Below are positions 5,224-55,721 of a stretch of DNA of 60,755 nt, piece after piece (positions within the stretch are counted from its first letter, which is position 1; every line of letters starts with the position of its first letter). The notes under the pieces are model-generated. The model was not told the origin of the DNA, searched no databases, and was given only the letters and a program-made list of their open reading frames with translations. This stretch comes from a virus (lineage: Duplodnaviria; Caudoviricetes): IMG/VR virus record IMGVR_UViG_3300024518_001962, positions 1 through 60,755 of that record; one strand, written 5' to 3'. The position numbers and the translations under genes were made by a program.

Positions 5224-5418
5224 CTAATTCATGTTCTCGAAATATGCCCAGAATTCGTCCGAATCAGGCGGCAATCCCAGCTTCTCCACCACCCACTCAT
5301 GCCGCTTCATCACCTTTTCTGTGGCCTCGATATTCGTGCCGAACCATGGATTTTCAGCCGCCCACATGAGAGCGCGGCGGTGATGCCACTCGCCCTCGTA
5401 GAGTGGTGGATAGTTCAT
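5224..5418 (-). CDS. Mini-protein homologous to scaffold-protein conserved domain
   Basis: ALMWAAENPWFG...TEKVMKRH...GLPPDSDEFW aligns with scaffold AVAWAEKTEWFG...TDYAMQQH...GFDPKSDEYY. Confidence 0.7.
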   Translation of the reverse strand: MNYPPLYEGEWHHRRALMWAAENPWFGTNIEATEKVMKRHEWVVEKLGLPPDSDEFWAYFENMN

Positions 5419-5642
5419 TTCCAGGCCCTCACCAGCTCTTTTTTCAGGCGCCCATTCGATGCACGAAGGTCATTTATCTCGCTCACATCCTCGTTCCGTT
5501 GGCGAGTTTTATTCACCTCTTCCTTCTCAAGGGCAACCAACAGCTTCTCTATATACTGTCGGCACTCATGGCAGGAGATGCCGCAGATATCCAGATGATC
5601 CTTTGCCTCTTTTTTAAGTTCCTCATTCCACCTCATCCCCAC
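5415..5642 (-). CDS. Hypothetical protein (Cys cluster plus coiled coil)
   Basis: CGISCHEC; ATGA-coupled. Confidence 0.6.
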   Translation of the reverse strand: MGMRWNEELKKEAKDHLDICGISCHECRQYIEKLLVALEKEEVNKTRQRNEDVSEINDLRASNGRLKKELVRAWK

Positions 5643-6031
5643 ACGCTCCTTACGGCGTTCACGGCCGCATCGAGGTCGTTAATAAAGGTTGCACCCACTT
5701 GCTCGACAGCCGGGGTGCCCGGTGTGCGCTTTCGCGTATCCTCAATCACACGAGTAGCCGTGCGTGTCAGCGCGTCCACCACCTTATCCCGCTGGTCCAA
5801 ATCAAAGGACTCACGGCTTCTCGTGCTTTTGATTTGATCGTCAGTCGGCCGCCAGCAGGGACACTCTAGCCACGGTTGCTGCCACACGAGGTCATTTCTT
5901 GCTGGGCATTGATATACATTCCCGTGCGTTGCGTATGGCTGTGGTGCGTTGCAATGGCCGAACGTGGGGAAGATTGGCTTTTCATTAAAGGCCCAATCAG
6001 CCCAACCGCAGTTCTGACAGTTATCCATCAA
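5633..6031 (-). CDS. Cys-rich hypothetical protein (CxxCGWAxW...GxCxAPQ...PWLECPxWR family)
   Basis: Clear paralogue of 6620..7048. Confidence 0.75.
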   Translation of the reverse strand: MMDNCQNCGWADWAFNEKPIFPTFGHCNAPQPYATHGNVYQCPARNDLVWQQPWLECPCWRPTDDQIKSTRSRESFDLDQRDKVVDALTRTATRVIEDTRKRTPGTPAVEQVGATFINDLDAAVNAVRSVWG

Positions 6032-6396
6032 TCACACCTCCTATGGGTTTCACGGGGCATCTCCTTTGCCATGGCGTGTACCTTATCGAAGAGTTTTTGA
6101 TATGGCCCCACTTCGCTCTCGGCCATATGACCACCAGACTGCTCGTGCATGATTAACTTCGTACCCAAGGCGCGTGTCAGGTAGAACAACTCGTCCCTCG
6201 TGAACACCTGCCCACCCACCTTCATGGGCGGGGGTGATCTATCAATCACTCGCCTGTCCTTCCGGCGCCGCATGAACCCATCCTGTGTGGATTTTACCCG
6301 CCGCTCACCACCTTCCCGGCGATCCATGTCCGGCCACGCTTCTATTAATTGCTCATTGCTTATCCTGTCCCAGAACCAATGCTTCATCTCACTCAT
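6028..6396 (-). CDS. Hypothetical protein with ERR/DRR repeats
   Basis: DRREGGERR...RRRKDRRVIDR. Confidence 0.65.
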   Translation of the reverse strand: MSEMKHWFWDRISNEQLIEAWPDMDRREGGERRVKSTQDGFMRRRKDRRVIDRSPPPMKVGGQVFTRDELFYLTRALGTKLIMHEQSGGHMAESEVGPYQKLFDKVHAMAKEMPRETHRRCD

Positions 6397-6623
6397 TTCT
6401 TGCTCCTCTCTCTGTCTAACGGCTCCTCGGTTAGCGGTGCAATTTTCCCGGCAATCTCGACAATATTGTCTCCCAGCTTTATGGCCCCTTCATGAGATCC
6501 GTCAATATGTTTCAGGTGTTCAAGGATGCAGTAGCGAATAATTCGCCATTCACCCATGCTGAGTTGATTCTCGATGCGCCACTTCTCCTTGACTGTGTCG
6601 AAATTAATATCCTCGCTCATCAC
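6393..6623 (-). CDS. Hypothetical protein
   Basis: ORF coupled to neighbours by 4-nt overlaps. Confidence 0.6.
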   Translation of the reverse strand: MMSEDINFDTVKEKWRIENQLSMGEWRIIRYCILEHLKHIDGSHEGAIKLGDNIVEIAGKIAPLTEEPLDRERSKK

Positions 6624-7048
6624 ACCCTCCCCATGCCTGGGTTGTCGTGAATCACATCTTTTGCCGCTTCCTCGATGTCCTCCACCTGCCTTTGGTGAGT
6701 GACACGAACTGTCTTTCCTTGCGAACCGCCTTGATCCTGGCAGAGGTCTTTCACTAACGACATGAATTCCTTAAGGTTACTCATCTTGTTGGAGTATTTC
6801 ATGTCAGCCCGTTGTAGGTCCTTGGCATGTTCCTCGTCAGTGAGTCGCCACAAAGGACACTCCAGCCACGGCGCATTCCAGTTGAGCTCTTTATAGTATC
6901 CACCTCCATGGGTAATCGTAGGTGTGCAGTGTGCTTGTGGTGCGTGACATTTCCCGGCAGTGCGGAATGGTCGAGGTGTGTTCAGGTCTGTCTCGTCTAG
7001 TGATTGGGTAGGCCATGCGGCCCACCCACAATCCCGGCAACTGTTCAT
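6620..7048 (-). CDS. Cys-rich hypothetical protein (paralogue of 5633..6031)
   Basis: CRDCGWAAW...GKCHAPQ...WNAPWLECPLWR. Confidence 0.75.
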   Translation of the reverse strand: MNSCRDCGWAAWPTQSLDETDLNTPRPFRTAGKCHAPQAHCTPTITHGGGYYKELNWNAPWLECPLWRLTDEEHAKDLQRADMKYSNKMSNLKEFMSLVKDLCQDQGGSQGKTVRVTHQRQVEDIEEAAKDVIHDNPGMGRV

Positions 7049-7209
7049 CTAAACGCCTCCCAGTATTCATCTGATTCAGGCACAACGCCTCTCTCTATAA
7101 GTGCGAAGTGTTTCTTCATTGCTCGATCTGTGGCCACCTTGTTCCTGCCGAACCATGGATTTTTGACAACCCAGTCTCGGCATTTTTCTGATACTTCAAC
7201 GTATAACAT
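7045..7209 (-). CDS. 54-aa mini-protein homologous to scaffold conserved domain (not in ORF track)
   Basis: MLYVEVSEKCRDWVVKNPWFGRNKVATDRAMKKHFALIERGVVPESDEYWEAFR; ATGA overlap with 6620..7048. Confidence 0.7.
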   Translation of the reverse strand: MLYVEVSEKCRDWVVKNPWFGRNKVATDRAMKKHFALIERGVVPESDEYWEAFR

Positions 7210-8245
7210 TCAGCACCTTTTTCTTGAAAGGTTTATCATCGGGGCCTTTCACGTACGGATCGATCCACACGATCTCGTGGTGCCCATCTGATGGAAAATA
7301 TTGGTTTCGTGGGTGGCCACGGACGAACCAGCGATGGCTGTATTCCATATCAGATTCACCATCACCTTTCCCCTTGGGGCCTCGTTCGAACTCACGCAGG
7401 TCGATGATGGATACCTCTTCCTCGCATGGTTTGGTCTTTCCTTCCCTCTCTATCTGCCGCCTCATTGCCCTTGGTATCTTAAATTTATTTATCCTGAAGA
7501 TCTTCTCATTCAGGAAGAGGGCCAAGGAGTCTGTTTTTGTCTGAACCACCTGATCGGTTACAACCCACCGCTCACCCCAATTAAAATAAAGAGCCTGAGT
7601 GAACGTCATTCCAGATCCGGGCGGGGAAACTGACATGAGAAGGGTGCCGTCAATGTGAACCTTTTCCTGATGGTCTGCATTCTTCGTGTATGCGGTGTAC
7701 TCCTCTCCCGTTTCGGTTGTGAAATAAAAAGATTGGTACGGGAGAGGCTTGGGCTTTGGCCTATTCTCCTCTGGGGCCTCGATATAGGCCTTGGTTACCT
7801 TCAAGGTCATTTCCCTCAGGAGCATGTACGGGTCTTTCTTTATGAACACGACAGGACAGTTCATCATGACACTTGCTATATAAATCTTCTCGGAGGCTGT
7901 GAAACTTCGATCTCTCCACTGCCAGAAATTCGGCTTACCAACCATCATTGATGCGAATAATCGCTTCTCTCCAATGGCTTCAGTTGGCGTCTGTATTTTA
8001 CCTCCCGTAACTTGCAGGGTTTCACAGTACGACAGTATGGTTGGATCTCTATGCAGAAGCTCCATCATCCATTCTTTGTCGGATCCCTGGAACTCTGGAA
8101 CCTTTGGCATGTTTTCTTCTATAATGCCTTGATCGGTTTCAATGAAGTCATTCATCTTCGAAAAGTCCATCACGGCATTACTGTTAAGAAGAGTCTTCAC
8201 CTCGTCCGTTGAAAGTCCTTCTCCCACCACCATAGGGTTAGCCAT
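7196..8245 (-). CDS. Conserved phage hypothetical protein with C-terminal HxxxVRGH...WIxPxxKG motif
   Basis: SHRWFVRGHPRNQYF...VWIDPYVKGP, a motif recurrent in phage proteins of unknown function. Confidence 0.75.
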   Translation of the reverse strand: MANPMVVGEGLSTDEVKTLLNSNAVMDFSKMNDFIETDQGIIEENMPKVPEFQGSDKEWMMELLHRDPTILSYCETLQVTGGKIQTPTEAIGEKRLFASMMVGKPNFWQWRDRSFTASEKIYIASVMMNCPVVFIKKDPYMLLREMTLKVTKAYIEAPEENRPKPKPLPYQSFYFTTETGEEYTAYTKNADHQEKVHIDGTLLMSVSPPGSGMTFTQALYFNWGERWVVTDQVVQTKTDSLALFLNEKIFRINKFKIPRAMRRQIEREGKTKPCEEEVSIIDLREFERGPKGKGDGESDMEYSHRWFVRGHPRNQYFPSDGHHEIVWIDPYVKGPDDKPFKKKVLNVIR

Positions 8246-41213: not shown

Positions 41214-42122
41214 TTACGCGCCCGGAGAACCGTAGATCCCGCGAGGGTCAGACCAACCGAAGACATAACGCTCACGACACTTGTATCGCATGTTGCCGGT
41301 GTCGAAATCGCCTTCCATCTTCGTGCTGAGTTTGGTGCGCTCGAAACACTTCATGGCGTTCGGAGCATCGGTCTTCAAGAACCAAGCATCCGTATCCGTC
41401 AAGAAGTGGTTGACCGCGAAGCCGCCAGGAACCACGTTCTGGTTCTTGATCGAGTTCAGGTCGTTGTTCGCAGTCTCAACGCGCAGGTTGGTATTCAAAA
41501 GCCTGTCCACCACGAACATAAGCTGTGGCGGGACAACCAGTTTCTGCGCCTTGAGGGCTGTGGTTAATCCGCGCTCGTCCGTGAACAGCGAGATGTCGAT
41601 CACGGCGTTCTCAAGCGAGGTTTCATTGAGGTCTGCGGCAGTAGTCGGCTCGTTGGCCCACGTTCCGCCAGCAGTCAGTGGATGAAGAGCGGAGATCATT
41701 TCGAGGCCATCTCCACCCAGATAGGAGGCGTTGAATGCGCGGTTGAATACCGCGGCGCCCTTGACGTTTTTCGTGTACGCCATCGACCTGGCCATGGCCT
41801 TGGTATAACGCTTGGAAATCGAGTCGTAGAGGTTGTCCTCGACAGCTTCCTCGGTGAGAGCAAAGGCCAGCGAGATGGTTTCGTGAGTGTAACGTGCAGT
41901 CCACGCCTCACGGGCATCATCGTACTGGGTTCCCTGTCCCTCAGCCTTGACAGGAGCGTTGCCGAAACCAACCATCATGACTTCTTCCTCAAAAGCACGA
42001 ACGGATGTCTCTTTGTCGAAGAGTTCCTCATGCTCCTGATCGTAACGGTTGTACTCCAGACCAAAGAGAACATTAAGACCAGGCTCAAGCTCTTTAGCCA
42101 GTTGCGCTCTATTAATAGCCAT
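41214..42122 (-). CDS. Major capsid protein
   Basis: MAINRAQLAKELEPGLNVLFGLEY...ARYTHETISLAF..TEEAVEDNLYD...DFDTGNMRYKCRERY.FGWSDPRG. Confidence 0.9.
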   Translation of the reverse strand: MAINRAQLAKELEPGLNVLFGLEYNRYDQEHEELFDKETSVRAFEEEVMMVGFGNAPVKAEGQGTQYDDAREAWTARYTHETISLAFALTEEAVEDNLYDSISKRYTKAMARSMAYTKNVKGAAVFNRAFNASYLGGDGLEMISALHPLTAGGTWANEPTTAADLNETSLENAVIDISLFTDERGLTTALKAQKLVVPPQLMFVVDRLLNTNLRVETANNDLNSIKNQNVVPGGFAVNHFLTDTDAWFLKTDAPNAMKCFERTKLSTKMEGDFDTGNMRYKCRERYVFGWSDPRGIYGSPGA

Positions 42123-42150: not shown

Positions 42151-42744
42151 TTAGATGCCGTCAACACCAACGCTTTTCAATGTGTGGTTATTAATCACGA
42201 CATAGGCGTTGCCATTGACAACAGTCTGATCCCTATTTTCATCGTCCGTGGAAAGCCCGATGATTTTGAGAGGATCAGTCGAGGTAGTAGCCACCTCGGA
42301 ATGATCAAGCTCGAAACGAGAGGTTCCGCTGTTCGTGTCACCATCGGTAATCGTGATGGTGGCGTTGCTGAACACATCCGCGATTGTCAGGATCCCATCA
42401 CACTGAACCTCAAACACAACCATCGGATCATCGCAAATCAAAGCCTCGATAATGCCAACAGTGATGTTCGTGGAGTCAGGATAATAGGCCTTCCATGTCG
42501 GAGTGCCGGAGCCGGGGTCAACGTAATTGCACCCCATGAACACGCCAAGCGTGTCAACAGTCGGAGCTGCCTCGCCAAGCCGGATATATCCGGTGGCCAG
42601 GGGTTGAACGGTATCTCCAGTGAAAATACCGCTATTCGCTGAGTTGTAGTTGTCAGCGATCTGATACGGGTTCACCGCGCCAGTGTAAACGCCACCAAGC
42701 GTCCTGACGGGTTTGAGTCCAAAAGGTCTATCTTTATTCGCCAT
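42151..42744 (-). CDS. Capsid-associated protein (minor capsid/decoration)
   Basis: MANKDRPFGLKPV...GVFMGCNYVDP...DDPMVVFEVQ; directly upstream of MCP. Confidence 0.7.
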   Translation of the reverse strand: MANKDRPFGLKPVRTLGGVYTGAVNPYQIADNYNSANSGIFTGDTVQPLATGYIRLGEAAPTVDTLGVFMGCNYVDPGSGTPTWKAYYPDSTNITVGIIEALICDDPMVVFEVQCDGILTIADVFSNATITITDGDTNSGTSRFELDHSEVATTSTDPLKIIGLSTDDENRDQTVVNGNAYVVINNHTLKSVGVDGI

Positions 42745-42780: not shown

Positions 42781-43359
42781 CTATTGACGGCCGCCGCCAA
42801 ACGTCACTTGCGAATGGCGTTGCGAATTGTCAAAAGGCATCCTTGGGTCATTGGCCTTCAAGAGGTCATTATCCACTGCGCGATCGGCATCATCGCTTCT
42901 CGCGTTGAAGTACGCTTCTCGTTGCTTCACGATTTCCACCGGAATCCGACAAAGAATCAAACCGCCAGTCGTAAAGGTACCGGCGTGTTTTCCGTGCGTA
43001 CCGTCAAGAACGGTACACTCAAAGTCGGGATAGGCATCTTGTGGAACGGGTTCGTAGCCTTCCCTGAATCTCGCGGCAAGGTTTTTGTGATCAACGGTGC
43101 CGTTGACTTCATACCGGATCCACCTGTGGTGATATCCCATCTCTGGGGTTGGGGCATCTAGGAGTTGAGGTGGCTTCCAGGAAGCCACTCGTTTCTCTGA
43201 ATCCCTTGTCTCCGATACCCTAGAGGCTCGTTCCGATTCCTCTGGATCCTGCGTTGGTGCGGGGGTGAGAACTTCAGTCGCTCCAGCAGCGAGTTGCGCC
43301 GTAGGATTATCGTCTTGGTTCTCGTCCAACCCGAAGGTCACTTCTCCATCATTAGGCAT
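42781..43359 (-). CDS. Conserved head-module protein
   Basis: WKPPQLLDAP.P..GY.HRWIR...REGYEPV...GGLILCRIP.E...R..YF. Confidence 0.75.
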   Translation of the reverse strand: MPNDGEVTFGLDENQDDNPTAQLAAGATEVLTPAPTQDPEESERASRVSETRDSEKRVASWKPPQLLDAPTPEMGYHHRWIRYEVNGTVDHKNLAARFREGYEPVPQDAYPDFECTVLDGTHGKHAGTFTTGGLILCRIPVEIVKQREAYFNARSDDADRAVDNDLLKANDPRMPFDNSQRHSQVTFGGGRQ

Positions 43360-44359
43360 TAGCAGCCCTTTCCCTAGCTAGACGAGCCTTCTCGCGCGCA
43401 TATGCCTCGTTGGGAATCCCAAGAGACTCTGCGACCGTTTGCTCGCTAGTAGTGACAACAGTTTTCGTGCGTTTAGTTGCAGACCCGGATGCATTACCAG
43501 CAGGAGCCACGGTCTGTCTTGGCTTTGGCCTGCCTACTTCTTCAGGTGCGCCAGGTTCGGCGGATGATGCGGGTGCGCGTTTCTTGAACATGTGTGGAAA
43601 CATGCCCTGAACACGTTTTTCAACTTCAATATAGTATTCATCGCTCTTTGGGTCAAATCCTTCTTTGTTGACCATATTGAAATGCTGTTGCATTGCATAG
43701 TCGGTCATTCCCTCGTGGGCACCGAACCATTCAGTTTTTTCAGCCCATGCAACAGCTTTTTGGTCGAGTTCTTCGGCAGGCGCCGCTGCGGCGGCCGCTG
43801 GGGCGGCTGGCGCATCTTCCTCTAGCACATCTTCTTCTTTTTTCGCCGCGGCATTCCTTTTGGCCCTCATGATTGCATTTTTATCTGCTGATAATTGGCC
43901 AATAAGTTCATTGGCATCAGCCATGCCATCTGCGTCTTCGTCTTCATAGGCATTTTTGTAAGCCGTCTTGGCCTCAGCCATCTGGCTTTTATTTCTCTCC
44001 TCGGCCTCTGTCAGGGTGTGATCCTCTTGCCCCGCCAGCCTTTTCTTTAGGATTTCGTTCTCCTGATGGACGGTTTTGGCGTAATTCAACGCCTCATCAG
44101 CGACTCGCCCACTTTCCTTCTTTTCGTAGGTTAGTTGGTTGATTCTTTTTCGAACCCTCTCACCAGTACCAACCAATTCGTCCGTAACGTCATCATCCGC
44201 TGCGGCAGGTGCCTCTTCGTCTACCTGGGTGGCCTCATCCTTTTCCTCATCAACCTCAAAAATAATATCCTTTTCTGGTTCTGATTCCGAATTGGCGGAA
44301 AAAACCTCTACCTCTTCCCCTTGTTCCACCTGTCCCACAACTTCATCTTCGCCTGGCAT
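43352..44359 (-). CDS. Capsid scaffolding protein
   Basis: Acidic N-terminus, VRKRINQLT coiled coil, KAVAWAEKTEWFG...SDEYY, C-terminal SEQTVAESLGIPNEAYA; lies between portal and MCP. Confidence 0.75.
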   Translation of the reverse strand: MPGEDEVVGQVEQGEEVEVFSANSESEPEKDIIFEVDEEKDEATQVDEEAPAAADDDVTDELVGTGERVRKRINQLTYEKKESGRVADEALNYAKTVHQENEILKKRLAGQEDHTLTEAEERNKSQMAEAKTAYKNAYEDEDADGMADANELIGQLSADKNAIMRAKRNAAAKKEEDVLEEDAPAAPAAAAAAPAEELDQKAVAWAEKTEWFGAHEGMTDYAMQQHFNMVNKEGFDPKSDEYYIEVEKRVQGMFPHMFKKRAPASSAEPGAPEEVGRPKPRQTVAPAGNASGSATKRTKTVVTTSEQTVAESLGIPNEAYAREKARLARERAANA

Positions 44360-44370
44360 GGCGTTTCTCC

Positions 44371-44847
44371 TTATAGCGTCCTGACATCATCAGGATCGAG
44401 AACTTTTGCGATGACCTCATCATCGTTGATAATGCGAACCTCAGGATTTTCTCCCGTGTCGAAATAAAGCCTGAACCTTGCACCGGCATACTTGCCGATA
44501 ACTACCCAATCACCCTCTTCGCACCACGGCTTAATGGTGCCATCGGGTTCCGGGTCGAATTTGCGAGGATTTTTGTAACAAACAGAACCCATCTTCATGA
44601 CCTTCCCGATAACCGTGGCCAAGGCCTCCTTTGCGGTACCCGAATCCGCCAAGTGAAGTCCACCTTTTGATACCTTCGCTCCAACATACGGACGGATGAG
44701 TATTCTCCATCCAACCGGATCTGGGATGTGCGCCCACATTTCAGTGTCGGCCGGATCGAGGTCTACTTCCGGTTCTGGCGGAACAAATGCGGTTCCGAAT
44801 CGCTTTTCCATCTCCTCGGTACTTAATAGTTCAGGTGTATTAGCCAT
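44371..44847 (-). CDS. groES: Co-chaperonin GroES (Cpn10)
   Basis: PVGWRILIRP...SKGGLHL...GKVMKMG...PWCEEGDWVVIGKYAG...RIINDDEVIA. Confidence 0.9.
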   Translation of the reverse strand: MANTPELLSTEEMEKRFGTAFVPPEPEVDLDPADTEMWAHIPDPVGWRILIRPYVGAKVSKGGLHLADSGTAKEALATVIGKVMKMGSVCYKNPRKFDPEPDGTIKPWCEEGDWVVIGKYAGARFRLYFDTGENPEVRIINDDEVIAKVLDPDDVRTL

Positions 44848-45163: not shown

Positions 45164-47605
45164 CTATTCACCACCACCTCCAGTCGGCCTCATTGCGGCG
45201 ATCTTCTCCGAACTATCAAGGCGATCCTCCGTCTGATCTTCGCTTGAAGCTATACGCTCTCTCGCAACTTCAGTTCTCTGGTCAGAGGCATGACGAGAGG
45301 TATCATCACGCCTGAATCCAAGGATGTCGGCCGCCTGACCGCGCTGACGATCAAAATCAAGTCTGGCCGCTTTATCTTTCTGGTCATTCACTAATTTTGT
45401 GGATTGAAGCGCGAGTTCCTGTTTGCGAATAGTAACGAGCGGATCTTCCTCATTTCCGGCCCCAGCCTCCTCCCTTACCTTGGCGTATTCCTGAATATAC
45501 TTGGACACTCTATTGCAAATGGCATCCTGTTTTTTCTGGTTCAATTCGATTGCGGCCGGATCTTGCAGTTCAGGATCCATCTCCCCGATAAGTTCAGTTT
45601 GATCCTTGAATTCTTCTTCAGTTTCCTCGGTAGCCCTCATGGAGATGTGTTCGAATATATGAGATTCAAATCCAAGCTGAACTACCGGGTTGACCATGGA
45701 CGGAAGTGACATCGTGGCAATATGCGTGTCGATATGAAGGGCATGATTCTGCCCCTTAAATGCCTGCATCGGTTCGCCGGTAAGGGCCTCAGAAGCTTCC
45801 GTAGCAGGATCCTTTGGTTGCGGCTCTTCCATGGGAGGCAGGATGGAATCGATATCCTGAACACCAAGCGCAGCGTACATTCGCCTGAGGGCCTCATACA
45901 TGCCCTTCTTGCCATGGAGTTCTGGTGCTGACGTTACAATCTGGAGTTGTGTTTGCGCCCTTGAGATGCGCTGCGTCATCGAGAAGATATTCGGATCGCT
46001 GACAGGAAGGATGTCTACCCTGGCATCAAAATCCTCGACCAATATATCTCTGCGTTTACCCGGAACATCATAGGGATATTCGGTTTGGTTTTCTTGGATG
46101 ATACGAGCGAGAATTCGAAGGTCATTTTTCTGGGCACGATGAAGTCTCTTGTGAACACCAGACATTACCTTCATGCCCTGCTCGATCAGTGCAACTGTGG
46201 TGCCCACGGGCGCCTGCTGATTCGAATCGGCGATCTTCTCGTTCGTGGTGGCAGCAAATTCATTCCCAGAATCAACAATCATCCCAAGGAGGGCCACCAA
46301 AGTGTTTGACGGTTCTTTAAATGGAAGGGGAATGATCTGATCTCTCAGGTTTCCGCCAGGGACATCGACATCCCTGAACTCACCTGGCTTGAGAGGTTCA
46401 TTGTCGCCCCGAATGCGCATTCCCTTGGCTTTAAATCCAGCAGGTAAATTATGAAACACACCTGCATCAATTAGCATCCTGAGAAGCGCAGTTGCGGTGA
46501 TCGAGAGGTTCCCGATCATGTGCGTTAAACCAAAGCCATAAAATCCGGTACCCGGCAGGAATTTGTAATGCGCGAAATAATCCTTCCTTCGCTTTCTCTC
46601 GTCATTCTCGTTCCAGTTTCGGCGAATCGCTAAAACCTTTTCGGTTTCCTCTTCGATTGACACGATATAAGGAACGCCAACACCCATGGACTCTTCTTCG
46701 AATCCATCGAGTTCCATGGTGACATGAACTTCGAAGACGATATATTCATCTCGTTCTTGTGAATTCGCCTCGACTCCCTCTATCTTGGCCTGCTTTACCT
46801 CAAGTTCGGATTCTGTTTTCTCGCCAGGTTCACCCAGATCGACATCACGATAGAACCCAGAGAGCATCATTTGCTTCATGTTATTTGTTTTTACTGGAAC
46901 GGCATGCGCAAACCTTGGCGTGGTGTTCAGATCGCCTGCCGTGTAGGGAGCGATAATATCCTTGGCAGCAACAAATTTAGATGCTGGCCGGCCAAGGAGT
47001 TCGTCCCAGTAGGTTTTCTTGAATGCGGAACCATCGATGGGAAGCTTGAAAAGAAGATTATCGAACTCTTCCTCGTACTCTTCCATGTCTTCTGTTACTT
47101 CGTAATTCATGTGCTTCTTGACGCGCTCTGCTTGTTGAATAACTTCTACCGATGCATCTCCGGCTACCTGATACTTTACTGGCCCACCCGCGGGAAAGAG
47201 CTCGCCATAGGCTTGAGCCTGGAACTGAACTACCGCTTTGGCGAGGAGGGGATGAACAACACCGGACGCACCCTCGAAAAGATCGCTACTTTCCTGATAC
47301 TTGGTACCAAGAAGCTCAAGCCCCTTTTCGAGGATCTGCTCCCAATCCTTACGTGATGTTTTGTCATCCTTGATGGATTTACAGAGGTCTACGGCTAAGG
47401 ATGTAAGTGCATCCTCGTCCATATGTTCGGCGAGATTTGCGTCATGCTCCTGGGAGGCCATGGCCGCCATGAGAGCTTCTTCGTCTATTTCTTCTTCAAG
47501 AGGCTCCTCTCCCTCGATCTCAAATTCAAGATCGCCTTCAGGAAGGATCTCTTCTTCGGTGTAGCCTCCGGGGAGGGATAGACCTGACTCAATCGCCACG
47601 GTCAA
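45164..47605 (-). CDS. Portal protein
   Basis: ANLAE...SRKDWE...GASGVVHPLL...GSAFKKTYWD...FLPGTGFYGFGL.H.IG...PVGTTVAL.E.G.KVMS.VHKRLH; follows TerL. Confidence 0.9.
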   Translation of the reverse strand: MTVAIESGLSLPGGYTEEEILPEGDLEFEIEGEEPLEEEIDEEALMAAMASQEHDANLAEHMDEDALTSLAVDLCKSIKDDKTSRKDWEQILEKGLELLGTKYQESSDLFEGASGVVHPLLAKAVVQFQAQAYGELFPAGGPVKYQVAGDASVEVIQQAERVKKHMNYEVTEDMEEYEEEFDNLLFKLPIDGSAFKKTYWDELLGRPASKFVAAKDIIAPYTAGDLNTTPRFAHAVPVKTNNMKQMMLSGFYRDVDLGEPGEKTESELEVKQAKIEGVEANSQERDEYIVFEVHVTMELDGFEEESMGVGVPYIVSIEEETEKVLAIRRNWNENDERKRRKDYFAHYKFLPGTGFYGFGLTHMIGNLSITATALLRMLIDAGVFHNLPAGFKAKGMRIRGDNEPLKPGEFRDVDVPGGNLRDQIIPLPFKEPSNTLVALLGMIVDSGNEFAATTNEKIADSNQQAPVGTTVALIEQGMKVMSGVHKRLHRAQKNDLRILARIIQENQTEYPYDVPGKRRDILVEDFDARVDILPVSDPNIFSMTQRISRAQTQLQIVTSAPELHGKKGMYEALRRMYAALGVQDIDSILPPMEEPQPKDPATEASEALTGEPMQAFKGQNHALHIDTHIATMSLPSMVNPVVQLGFESHIFEHISMRATEETEEEFKDQTELIGEMDPELQDPAAIELNQKKQDAICNRVSKYIQEYAKVREEAGAGNEEDPLVTIRKQELALQSTKLVNDQKDKAARLDFDRQRGQAADILGFRRDDTSRHASDQRTEVARERIASSEDQTEDRLDSSEKIAAMRPTGGGGE

Positions 47606-47672: not shown

Positions 47673-49211
47673 TTAGCCGTAATAGGCCTTTCTACGCTTC
47701 CTTATAAACTTTTCTTCCTCATCTTCATAGTCGCTCGGATTAACAATAAACCCGCCTTCCCTGAATCTGAGCATAGCCTGTGTCACGCTGTCAACATAGT
47801 CATCATGATCACCATTCGGAAAGTCAGCACATTCCTCGATCACCTCGGTAGCAAAATTCTTATCCGGCGCCCACACCAACCCTGATTCAAATGTAGGTGA
47901 TACGCCATTTGCTCGCGCGATTTTATCTCTTCCGGTGGATGGATTGAATTTCACGACAGGAATTCCCATCGCGCGAAGCTCTTGAATGAGCGGCCCACCC
48001 GTAGCCTTGTTTTCAATGATCGTCATATCTGGATCCCACTTATTGTGTTCCCTGAGCGCAATTCGCTTCAATTCAGGGAAGTCCCAGCGGCCTTTCAGAG
48101 CATCCAGTAGGATAATATGCTCGGCTTTGTCGGTTTTCTCTCTTATTTCCCTTTTAAAGATTCCCCAGGTGGTAATTGCGCTGTAGTCGGCCGTTTCTTT
48201 GGCATCAAAGGCTGTATCGTAGGACTGGAGGATGTATTCCACCTTTGGTGGGTCGGGTTTTTCCCATTTTCGCCAATATTCGCGCTTTATGATGGCACCT
48301 TCCTCGGCCGTGGGGTTCTGCATGTACTCTGCAAGCCATTTTGAGGTACCAACGGAAGCTTTTGTCGCCAGAAGTTGATCGAGAGGCCAGTATGCCGGCC
48401 ACAACGAGCGTCCGGACTCCAAAATTGCCGGAAATTCGACTACTTCCCAAACATCTGCGTTCTCCTCGCCCATCGCTTCAAGCACACGAGCGGTCAAATC
48501 CTTCTTTGACCACCTCGTCATGACCAAAACGATAGCACCACCAGGCTGGAGCCTCTGACGAGGGCCACCTCGGTACCATTCGTAATGAGAGTCCATAACC
48601 GTAGGCGACATAGCGTGTTGCTCGGAGTGCGGATCGTCAACGATGAACAGATCGGCGCCGTGCCCGGCAATACTTGTGCCAACTCCCGCGGCGTAATACT
48701 CGCCACCCTGCGCAGTTGCCCAGACACCACGCGCCGTTCGGTCTGGAGAGAGGAATGTGTTCGGAAATAGGTTCAGATATTCTGGTTTTTTCACCAAATC
48801 ACGAACTTTACCACCAAATTTCAAGGAGAGCTCAGATGAGTGAGTGGCCTGCATGATGTAGCCACCCGGATTTTTCCCCAAAAAGAACGATGGAAGATAA
48901 ATCGAGGCAAATTCAGATTTGGTATGTCGCGGTGGCATATTGATGATCAGTCGTTTCAGGTCACCTGAGATAATCCTATCGAATTTCTCTGCTACGATTT
49001 CGTGGTGTGCGCCTGGAACGAACCCAGATCGAATACTTCCATCTTCATTATACATTGTTGGCCAGAGGTGCCTGACATAGGGAAGGAATTTATTTCTGGC
49101 AAGATCTAGCTTGTCTTCATGTTGAAGTTTTTCTGTAATATCCTGAACACGTTTGATTTCCACGTTCGACAGGAGATCTGGATTGTCAATAACAACATGA
49201 TCGGTCATCAA
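47673..49211 (-). CDS. terL: Terminase large subunit
   Basis: RLIINMPPRHTKSEF, GADLFIVDDPH, VMTRW, QSYDTAF...ADYSAITTWG, IENKATG, HDDYVDS. Confidence 0.97.
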   Translation of the reverse strand: MMTDHVVIDNPDLLSNVEIKRVQDITEKLQHEDKLDLARNKFLPYVRHLWPTMYNEDGSIRSGFVPGAHHEIVAEKFDRIISGDLKRLIINMPPRHTKSEFASIYLPSFFLGKNPGGYIMQATHSSELSLKFGGKVRDLVKKPEYLNLFPNTFLSPDRTARGVWATAQGGEYYAAGVGTSIAGHGADLFIVDDPHSEQHAMSPTVMDSHYEWYRGGPRQRLQPGGAIVLVMTRWSKKDLTARVLEAMGEENADVWEVVEFPAILESGRSLWPAYWPLDQLLATKASVGTSKWLAEYMQNPTAEEGAIIKREYWRKWEKPDPPKVEYILQSYDTAFDAKETADYSAITTWGIFKREIREKTDKAEHIILLDALKGRWDFPELKRIALREHNKWDPDMTIIENKATGGPLIQELRAMGIPVVKFNPSTGRDKIARANGVSPTFESGLVWAPDKNFATEVIEECADFPNGDHDDYVDSVTQAMLRFREGGFIVNPSDYEDEEEKFIRKRRKAYYG

Positions 49212-53479: not shown

Positions 53480-53564
53480 TGGTGCGTTCGGCTGATTGTG
53501 ATGCTGGAGTCGAACCAGCTACCGGGGCTTGCATGCCCCTGCTCTGCCGTTGAGCTAATCACGC
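53480..53564 (-). ncRNA. Aberrant tRNA-derived RNA (6-nt anticodon loop, 12-nt insertion in 3' acceptor strand)
   Basis: GCGTGAT-TAGCTCAACGGCAGAGC-A-GGGGC ATGCAA GCCCC-GGTA-GCTGG TTCGACT CCAGC-ATCAC[AATCAGCCGAAC]GC-ACCA. Confidence 0.65.
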
Positions 53565-55647: not shown

Positions 55648-55721
55648 TGGGAGCCAGAGCAGGATTCGAACCTGCGTTCCCAGATCCAAAGTCTGGTGTC
55701 CTGCCGCTAGACGATCCGGCT
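55648..55721 (-). tRNA. tRNA-Gln (TTG)
   Basis: AGCCGGA/TCTGGCT acceptor, CCAGA-CTTTGGA-TCTGG anticodon arm, GTTCGAATC, CCA. Confidence 0.92.

Follow-up and report, generated by a model that had tools for sequence, protein, structure and literature searches.

Two small genes with a shortened WFG domain in a marine podophage and their possible relation to head assembly

Why does a phage carry, about 37 kb away from its head module, two very short genes that resemble a single domain of a head-module protein? The question is raised by an uncultured marine podophage, kin of the HTVC023P-type pelagiphages, whose genome is a complete IMG/VR virus record of 60,755 bp (IMGVR_UViG_3300024518_001962; CheckV completeness 100%); this whole stretch of DNA is referred to below as the window. 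The two genes, named m1 (5224..5418, minus strand, 64 aa) and m2 (7045..7209, minus strand, 54 aa), had been pointed out in an initial annotation as stand-alone copies of the conserved domain of a capsid scaffold. Both open reading frames (ORFs) lie where that annotation placed them, on the minus strand, and the peptides quoted there are correct. Judged from their sequences, m1 and m2 are real small genes that look functional, and each encodes a truncated version of a helical domain, here called the WFG domain, whose full-length form is carried by a scaffold-like protein of 335 aa.

The mini genes and the domain that they carry

The similarity of both peptides to the 335-aa protein (gene at 43352..44359, minus strand) is significant by BLASTP. 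m1 aligns with it without gaps (35% identity over 48 aa, E 3e-8), m2 shows 40% identity over 47 aa (E 5e-11), and the two minis share 48% identity over 42 aa (E 2e-14). The region involved covers residues about 197-247 of the larger protein, in agreement with the alignment initially proposed to the segment at about 43620-43765 (residues ~199-247). Profile comparison gives the same picture: phrog_28737, the family matched by the 335-aa protein, detects the minis over one and the same stretch, positions 223-266 of the profile (m1, E 2.1e-5; m2, E 1.3e-5). A six-frame scan of the window with a profile built from the three copies found just these three, the next match having an E-value of 5.7. In a library of 1.84 billion representative proteins, m1, through its cluster representative P0004, which differs by one residue, and m2 (P0001) were recovered with E-values of 3.4e-24 and 7.5e-22, respectively; these values are partly circular, since the profile used contained both minis.

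The WFG domain can be described as a portable, predicted helical domain of ~60 residues, with the pattern W-x5-WFG ... T ... H ... G-x-DP-x-SDEYY ... FPxxF. The shorter pattern recognised at first, W-x5-WFG...T...H...G..P.SDE[YF], agrees with the family-wide invariants W, W, F, T and H, and all five are present in both m1 and m2 in an alignment of 26 sequences. In m1 the domain corresponds to residues ~15-61. Both proteins end shortly past SDE[YF]W (m1 at ...SDEFWAYFENMN, m2 at ...SDEYWEAFR) and are devoid of the fourth helix, E-x-D-x-R...FPxxF, of which F254, P255 and F258 are at least 90% conserved in full-length members; they are also without the coiled coil and the C-terminal helix-turn-helix, both of which are found in the 335-aa protein. 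The AlphaFold2 (AF2) model of m2 is a three-helix unit (helices 8-16, 24-39 and 47-53) with a confidence score (pLDDT) of 90.5, a value driven by the alignment. Fold searches with this model (PDB Foldseek, VIA wide and BFVD) returned generic helical matches only, with a best Z of 4.6, and a word-based search with m2 alone recovered m2 itself and nothing else. Sequence matches in the PDB were weak (E at least 0.026), concerned integron cassette proteins and were taken as chance; in the ESM Atlas, clusters of 73-78 aa without a name were listed. A complex predicted for m2 and residues 193-264 of the 335-aa protein obtained a score of 0.03 and was used as evidence neither way.

The two genes are embedded in an unbroken, tight array on the same strand, amid replication and accessory genes and after those for a helicase, a primase and a methyltransferase. 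The ATG of m1 overlaps the stop codon of the upstream gene (ATGA), with GAGG 9-12 nt upstream; the stop of m2 overlaps the ATG of the next gene, again as ATGA, and AAGG is present about 10 nt upstream of its own start. Over 41 codons, comparison of m1 and m2 gave a proportion of synonymous differences (pS) of 0.74, which is saturated, and a proportion of nonsynonymous differences (pN) of 0.29. Saturated synonymous sites together with the maintenance of the five invariants are taken to indicate purifying selection since the m1/m2 duplication. The exact m2 sequence occurs on 4 contigs and the F59Y variant of m1 (P0004) on 3 other contigs; moreover, near-identical fragments of the region were found in 4 further seawater runs, where F59Y in m1 is the sole change in a mini. 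Of 13 runs listed, none is an RNA run. A scan for promoters and terminators gave results at chance level. A frameshift leading from the upstream 349-aa gene into m2 was also considered and rejected, because the m2 frame is closed by a stop right before the ATG, and a scan of viral sequences with this neighbouring 349-aa protein found nothing. The GC content at third codon positions (GC3) is 0.69 in m1, 0.45 in m2 and 0.46 in the scaffold-like gene.

As already remarked in the initial annotation, the minis lie near two Cys-rich paralogues. A 142-aa Cys-rich ORFan (6620..7048, minus strand), with no match in Pfam, PHROG or NCBIfam, has a start codon that overlaps the stop of m2 (ATGA) and is translationally coupled to it, while its 132-aa paralogue (5633..6031, minus strand) is found one gene upstream of m1. 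The paralogues have the pattern CxxC...C...CPxW, and the shorter is 42% identical to the longer over 77 aa (E 1.7e-13).

The minis were at first regarded as plain copies of the domain of the phage's own scaffold, a view that could not be maintained: the last helix (FPxxF) is absent, identity to that domain is 35-41%, and phylogenetic analysis places them as sisters beside a bacterial kinase-linked copy. In a tree of 115 sequences and 50 columns, m1 and m2 group together (100/96), and their next neighbours are the kinase-linked protein, through its second domain (99/68), and two proteins with a signal peptide (93/47), while the phage's own scaffold domain is found elsewhere with strong support. 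However, a tree joining the minis with this domain was not rejected by the approximately unbiased (AU) test (p 0.115); the minis are also on long branches, and their position in the tree is therefore tentative.

The 335-aa protein and the head module

The 335-aa protein was named a scaffold from the beginning, and this is its likely role. Gene position and predicted build make the assignment plausible, but the window protein itself has no match to the scaffold-related families phrog_8865 and PF10123. Its gene sits between the portal and GroES-like genes and that of the major capsid protein (MCP), as in 4 relatives and in a more distant group described below. The AF2 model, based on 65 homologues, has an overall pLDDT of 80. 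The N-terminal part consists of a disordered acidic stretch (residues 1-60) and two long helices (61-139 and 143-182) that form a helical hairpin; next come a compact four-helix domain (200-261) and a linker that is disordered and basic, and finally a short strand with a helix-turn-helix (299-334, the helix-turn-helix itself at 304-334). The elongated helical build and the C-terminal helix-turn-helix are predicted with a pLDDT of ~90 in those parts. The four-helix part is the full WFG domain (residues ~199-261; 43577..43765, minus strand), which is modelled with a pLDDT of 95-97 and shows the highest conservation in the family: of the 8 columns that are invariant in an alignment of 65 full-length sequences, 6 fall inside it (W205, W211, T219, H226, Y242 and Y243). 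By this sequence comparison, the WFG domain is in phages the best-conserved part of a scaffold-like protein of ~300-350 aa. The C-terminal strand and helix-turn-helix (residues ~299-334; 43358..43465, minus strand), which have no counterpart in m1 and m2, contain the motif LTxSQVAIAKKLGVPLEEYAK, also conserved across the family.

All 65 family members match phrog_28737, a family without assigned function (E 1.6e-41 for the 335-aa protein). The minis have in common with these proteins the W-x5-WFG...SDEYY domain, whereas their organisation differs: phrog_28737 members of ~300-350 aa run from an acidic N-terminus through a coiled coil, the four-helix domain and a basic linker to the C-terminal helix-turn-helix, and the minis are proteins of 54-64 aa with three helices. 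Weak matches to phrog_8865, annotated as 'head scaffolding protein', were obtained for 6/65 members (best E 8.2e-5), spanning the N-terminal region in P0008, the one member examined; 3/65 weakly matched the Pfam family Mu-like_Pro (PF10123; best E 0.0056), 19/65 matched a generic coiled-coil family, and one family fragment bears the JGI name 'phage I-like protein'. Fold searches with the model of the 335-aa protein recovered generic helical hairpins only.

Internal scaffolds with a C-terminal, coat-binding helix-turn-helix include gp8 of P22, gpI/Z of Mu (Pfam PF10123) and Nu3 of lambda. The 335-aa protein shares with them the gene position, the helical build and the predicted C-terminal helix-turn-helix, but it has no significant sequence match and gave no informative structural match. 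By analogy, its helix-turn-helix would be the capsid-binding part. To our knowledge, in a comparison made by Pfam and PDB searches only, none of the scaffolds of this type has a domain like WFG.

In order of transcription, the head module comprises the genes for TerL (47673-49211), the portal protein (45164..47605; phrog_1216, E 4.9e-39), a phage GroES-like co-chaperonin (44371..44847; Pfam Cpn10, E 2.8e-4; phrog_3188, E 1.6e-12), the 335-aa protein, two conserved proteins of 192 aa and 197 aa, and the MCP (41214..42122; phrog_371, E 1.8e-15; NF045541, MCP part, E 3.5e-8). All lie on the minus strand, as do all family-assigned long ORFs of the window, and the position of the GroES-like gene immediately upstream of the 335-aa gene is shared with relatives. 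The 192-aa protein, here Y (42781..43359; phrog_36003, E 1e-40), and the 197-aa protein, here Z (42151..42744; phrog_37556, E 2.6e-28), have no assigned function; a role as protease, decoration protein or second scaffold could belong to one of them rather than to the 335-aa protein. Elsewhere in the window, ARAGORN identified a tRNA-like gene with an undetermined two-base anticodon at 53494-53564 (minus strand), adjoining a tRNA-Pro gene, and a tRNA-Gln gene at 55648-55721.

Among named phages, those nearest to the 335-aa protein are Pelagibacter phages HTVC023P and HTVC027P, phages 023Pt_psg01 and DSL-LC04, and Roseobacter phages CRP-901/902, with 27-33% identity. The module order is kept in all 4 relatives compared in full (023Pt_psg01, DSL-LC04, HTVC023P and CRP-901), and in HTVC027P the order GroES-X-Y, X being the 335-aa homologue, is kept within the short stretch compared. 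The homologues in these phages (e.g., HTVC023P gp37, HTVC027P gp56, CRP-901 gp60 and DSL-LC04 WJZ48062) are annotated as 'hypothetical' or 'kinesin-like'. The word 'scaffold' is absent from a 2022 pelagiphage paper and from the CRP-901 paper; in the portions available, a 2019 preprint assigns no scaffold to the homologue of this gene, and the HTVC023P and CRP-901 papers report neither virion proteomics nor a scaffold assignment for it.

In the more distant group, represented by L017, the genes for TerL, portal and GroES are followed, in the same order, by those for proteins of 291 aa (with W-x5-WFG), 173 aa, 202 aa (phrog_37556, the family of Z) and 306 aa. The L017 gene (5488-6363, plus strand) and ~20 similar loci (L016-L037) encode proteins of ~280-335 aa that retain just one half of the domain, W-x5-WFG (WNAENPWFGTNKRKT), in the same GroES-X-Y-Z-MCP module. 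As this half alone is kept in such a divergent class, the W-x5-WFG motif would seem to be the most ancient portion of the WFG domain.

The WFG domain and its free copies in other genomes

A five-sequence profile of the domain matched 1251 of the 1.84 billion representative proteins at E<=1e-3, and 366 at E<=1e-10; phage proteins with a length of about 300-350 aa form the majority. Among the best 150 matches, 73 are proteins of 280-360 aa with the domain at about residues 170-290, and most of the shorter ones are fragments; in each search the best 120-150 matches were inspected, so that weaker minis could have escaped notice. No Pfam family corresponds to the WFG domain. It had been taken for a capsid-scaffold domain, a definition that proved too narrow, since the matches also include bacterial proteins that are secreted or anchored, algal kinesin-like proteins and a kinase with the domain in its extracytoplasmic tail; on these sequence matches it is not scaffold-specific. 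P0003 and its cluster-mate P0152 derive from metagenome-assembled genomes (MAGs) of Gammaproteobacteria, and in P0152, a Ser/Thr kinase of 659 aa, a single membrane helix precedes two tandem WFG copies, which lie in the predicted extracytoplasmic tail (L061 / L395 / L399). P0035, P0049, P0053 and P0131 have an N-terminal signal peptide and at least one WFG copy, with a weaker second copy in P0035 and P0053; tandem pairs are thus found in 4 non-phage proteins (P0003, P0152, P0053 and P0035). In P0116, which belongs to a cluster of 15, a kinesin motor (PF00225, E 1.6e-82) is followed by the WFG domain and, at the C-terminus, by a conserved coiled coil, an architecture that is probably the source of the 'kinesin-like' label given to the 023Pt_psg01 homologue. 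P0116 and its 14 cluster mates are GC-rich and eukaryote-like, reach 765 aa and are algal kinesin-like.

Cellular genomes also contain a shorter form. Four single-cell genomes of Pelagibacteraceae encode a 120-aa protein with a basic, hydrophobic N-terminus and a WFG domain, on chromosomal contigs of 60-228 kb (L076, L054, L080 and L112); in L076 (1743-2186) its gene adjoins rpoD. The hypothesis that this anchored form is a core SAR11 gene was rejected, since a match was present in just 3/61 genomes sampled from the family, one of them with two scaffold-type ORFs. A genome-wide scan was carried out with a degenerate DNA pattern, an earlier alignment-based (A2) scan of genome contigs having found nothing; in 60 of its 74 loci the ORFs encode 262-364 aa, the C-terminal motif being present in most, and these loci are probably phage DNA within MAGs and single-amplified genomes.

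A search for short stand-alone matches elsewhere, recommended in the initial annotation, was successful in part: a free copy outside the head module was identified in a second phage lineage, while none was found in 273 of the 275 viral loci. Of the 28 viral loci reached with m1, 25 have a matching ORF that is 282-335 aa long, and in the other 3 the match runs into a contig end. Exactly one domain ORF was found in 100/103 loci reached with P0065 and P0080, and in all 147 loci reached with P0122 and P0010, where it is long or cut by the contig end; the short candidates P0080, P0122 and P0010 were accordingly rejected as minis, being pieces of genes for ~300 aa. In a metagenome scan with m1 (25 loci), the 15 inspected are all genes for ~300-330 aa or are cut by the contig end, and the other 10 are matches of 15 residues in the divergent class.

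The second lineage is represented by two loci with the same gene, L145 and L146 (P0065/P0269). In L146, a 19.5-kb fragment with an estimated completeness of 34%, the stand-alone gene (7410-7718, plus strand; 102 aa, or 81 aa from an inner ATG) encodes a full four-helix WFG domain (phrog_28737, E 1.2e-17) and is located after the genes for primase, helicase and DNA polymerase and before an endonuclease, small ORFs and TerS. The domain is 88% identical to that of a 342-aa scaffold-like protein of another contig. This match is limited to residues 211-277, indicating that no broken scaffold gene surrounds the L146 mini. Contigs with the 342-aa scaffold carry the full-length gene only and have no homologue of the L146 polymerase; such identity in spite of the missing polymerase suggests that phages differing in their replication modules have exchanged either head modules or the domain. 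The 81-aa form occurs on 16 contigs, the longest of 52 kb. Like m1 and m2, the L146 gene is a free phage WFG copy that follows replication genes outside the head module; it differs in having the complete domain and a close scaffold relative, whereas m1 and m2 are truncated and far more diverged. From the gene content of these contigs, free WFG-domain genes thus appear beside replication genes in at least two phage lineages, the L146 lineage being an independent recurrence.

Possible roles of the free domain

The WFG domain is probably a protein-protein interaction module, as suggested by its invariants, which are aromatic or at expected helix caps, by the tandem pairs, and by the proteins that carry it, which act as oligomers (kinesin tail, receptor-kinase ectodomain, scaffold). 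The invariant residues themselves look structural and would contribute to an aromatic core and to helix caps. Being without coiled coil and helix-turn-helix, m1 and m2 would offer the WFG module alone in the cytoplasm, where they might cap the molecule that the scaffold's WFG domain binds, or compete for it; this partner could be the portal, the scaffold or some further assembly factor. The result would be a modulation of head assembly, either of the phage itself or of a co-infecting relative, with the minis acting as domain-level competitors rather than as structural components. This is the best reading of the data, and a tentative one. It is favoured by the L146 mini, which, with its 88% identity to a scaffold domain, fits the competitor idea better than m1 and m2 do, and the tandem pairs in the 4 non-phage proteins fit a self-associating or interaction module.

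Several observations weigh against this competition. The minis are just 35-41% identical to the phage's own scaffold domain and group apart from it, with non-phage copies (99/68 and 93/47, not starred); m2 is 53% identical to the copy in the tail of the gammaproteobacterial Ser/Thr kinase versus 41% to the own scaffold domain. Low identity and tree position imply that the binding surface of the minis may differ, and without the fourth helix the ancestral interaction could be changed or lost. The presence of the domain in proteins unrelated to capsids means that a capsid-related partner is not implied. Furthermore, no mini is found in any of 5 related complete phage genomes, each with exactly one domain copy, nor in 273 of the 275 viral loci, and this rarity among relatives indicates that the minis are not a general part of assembly in the group.

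Alternatively, m1 and m2 could be generic WFG adaptors unrelated to capsids, acting with the Cys-rich ORFans or on a host target during early or middle takeover, and perhaps acquired from a bacterial gene instead of the scaffold. This explanation, which we regard as possible but somewhat doubtful, agrees with the location of the minis amid replication and accessory genes, with the vicinity of each to one of the two Cys-rich paralogues and the translational coupling of m2 to one of them, with the many non-capsid architectures of the domain, and with the closest relative of m2 being the second domain of the bacterial kinase tail (53-56%), in a tree that places the minis with non-phage copies. 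On the other hand, the pairs have different orders (m2 then Cys142; Cys132, p75, then m1) and were therefore not duplicated as a unit; the bacterial copies have a signal peptide or follow a membrane helix, features that are missing in the minis; a common origin with the phage's own scaffold is left standing by the AU test; and the stand-alone copy of L146, so similar to a scaffold domain, has no Cys-rich neighbour.

The minis have also been considered as anti-defence decoys, made earlier than the scaffold, that would occupy a host immune sensor of its WFG domain without activating it. Throughout a very large group of phages, the domain is the surface that is best conserved in an abundant late protein, and the minis, like most counter-defence genes, are accessory and specific to their lineage; however, with 35-41% identity they would be poor mimics of the phage's own scaffold domain, and we know of no defence system that senses a scaffold protein. 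This role is regarded as distinctly unlikely. Less credible still is that m1 and m2 are decaying fragments or chance ORFs without function. They are very short and have lost the last helix of the domain, but every family invariant is kept despite saturated synonymous sites, purine-rich motifs precede the starts, both genes overlap their neighbours in the unbroken same-strand array, and the near-identical sequences from the 4 further seawater runs show one conservative change, F59Y.

Competition with the scaffold would have its closest known parallel in a satellite: according to the published description, CpmB of SaPI1 and the 80alpha scaffold are competitors for the site that the scaffold occupies on the capsid protein (PMC5644958). 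The principle would be common to both cases, with a small, separate protein sharing one interaction element with the scaffold and so redirecting assembly. However, CpmB is encoded by the satellite whereas m1 and m2 are encoded by the phage itself, and the minis reproduce a middle domain and are devoid of the C-terminal helix-turn-helix, to which capsid binding could be ascribed by analogy only. A broader form of the competitor reading would see free, shortened scaffold-type domains, produced from the replication/accessory region, as a recurrent phage device, arisen at least twice, that interferes with head assembly, by poisoning the scaffold of co-infecting relatives or by gating the timing of the phage's own procapsid nucleation, through capping of the partner bound by the scaffold's best-conserved domain; this extension is unlikely on present data. 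In the portions available of the literature on scaffolding decoys, pelagiphages, HTVC023P and DSL-LC04, supplements not included, no description of the WFG domain or of its free copies was found.

The phage group concerned has been reported as the most abundant in the ocean, and its head-assembly genes, except those for the capsid protein and GroES, are unannotated. The analysis defines a domain not described before as the conserved core of the scaffold-like protein of these phages, recognises it also in bacterial envelope proteins and in algal kinesin-like proteins, and identifies two phage lineages with free copies outside the head module. If m1 and m2 do compete with the scaffold, they would be a phage-encoded counterpart of the satellite trick of SaPI1 CpmB, in a form simple enough for in vitro work; if they do not, the WFG domain would be a widespread interaction module, whose partner is worth finding.

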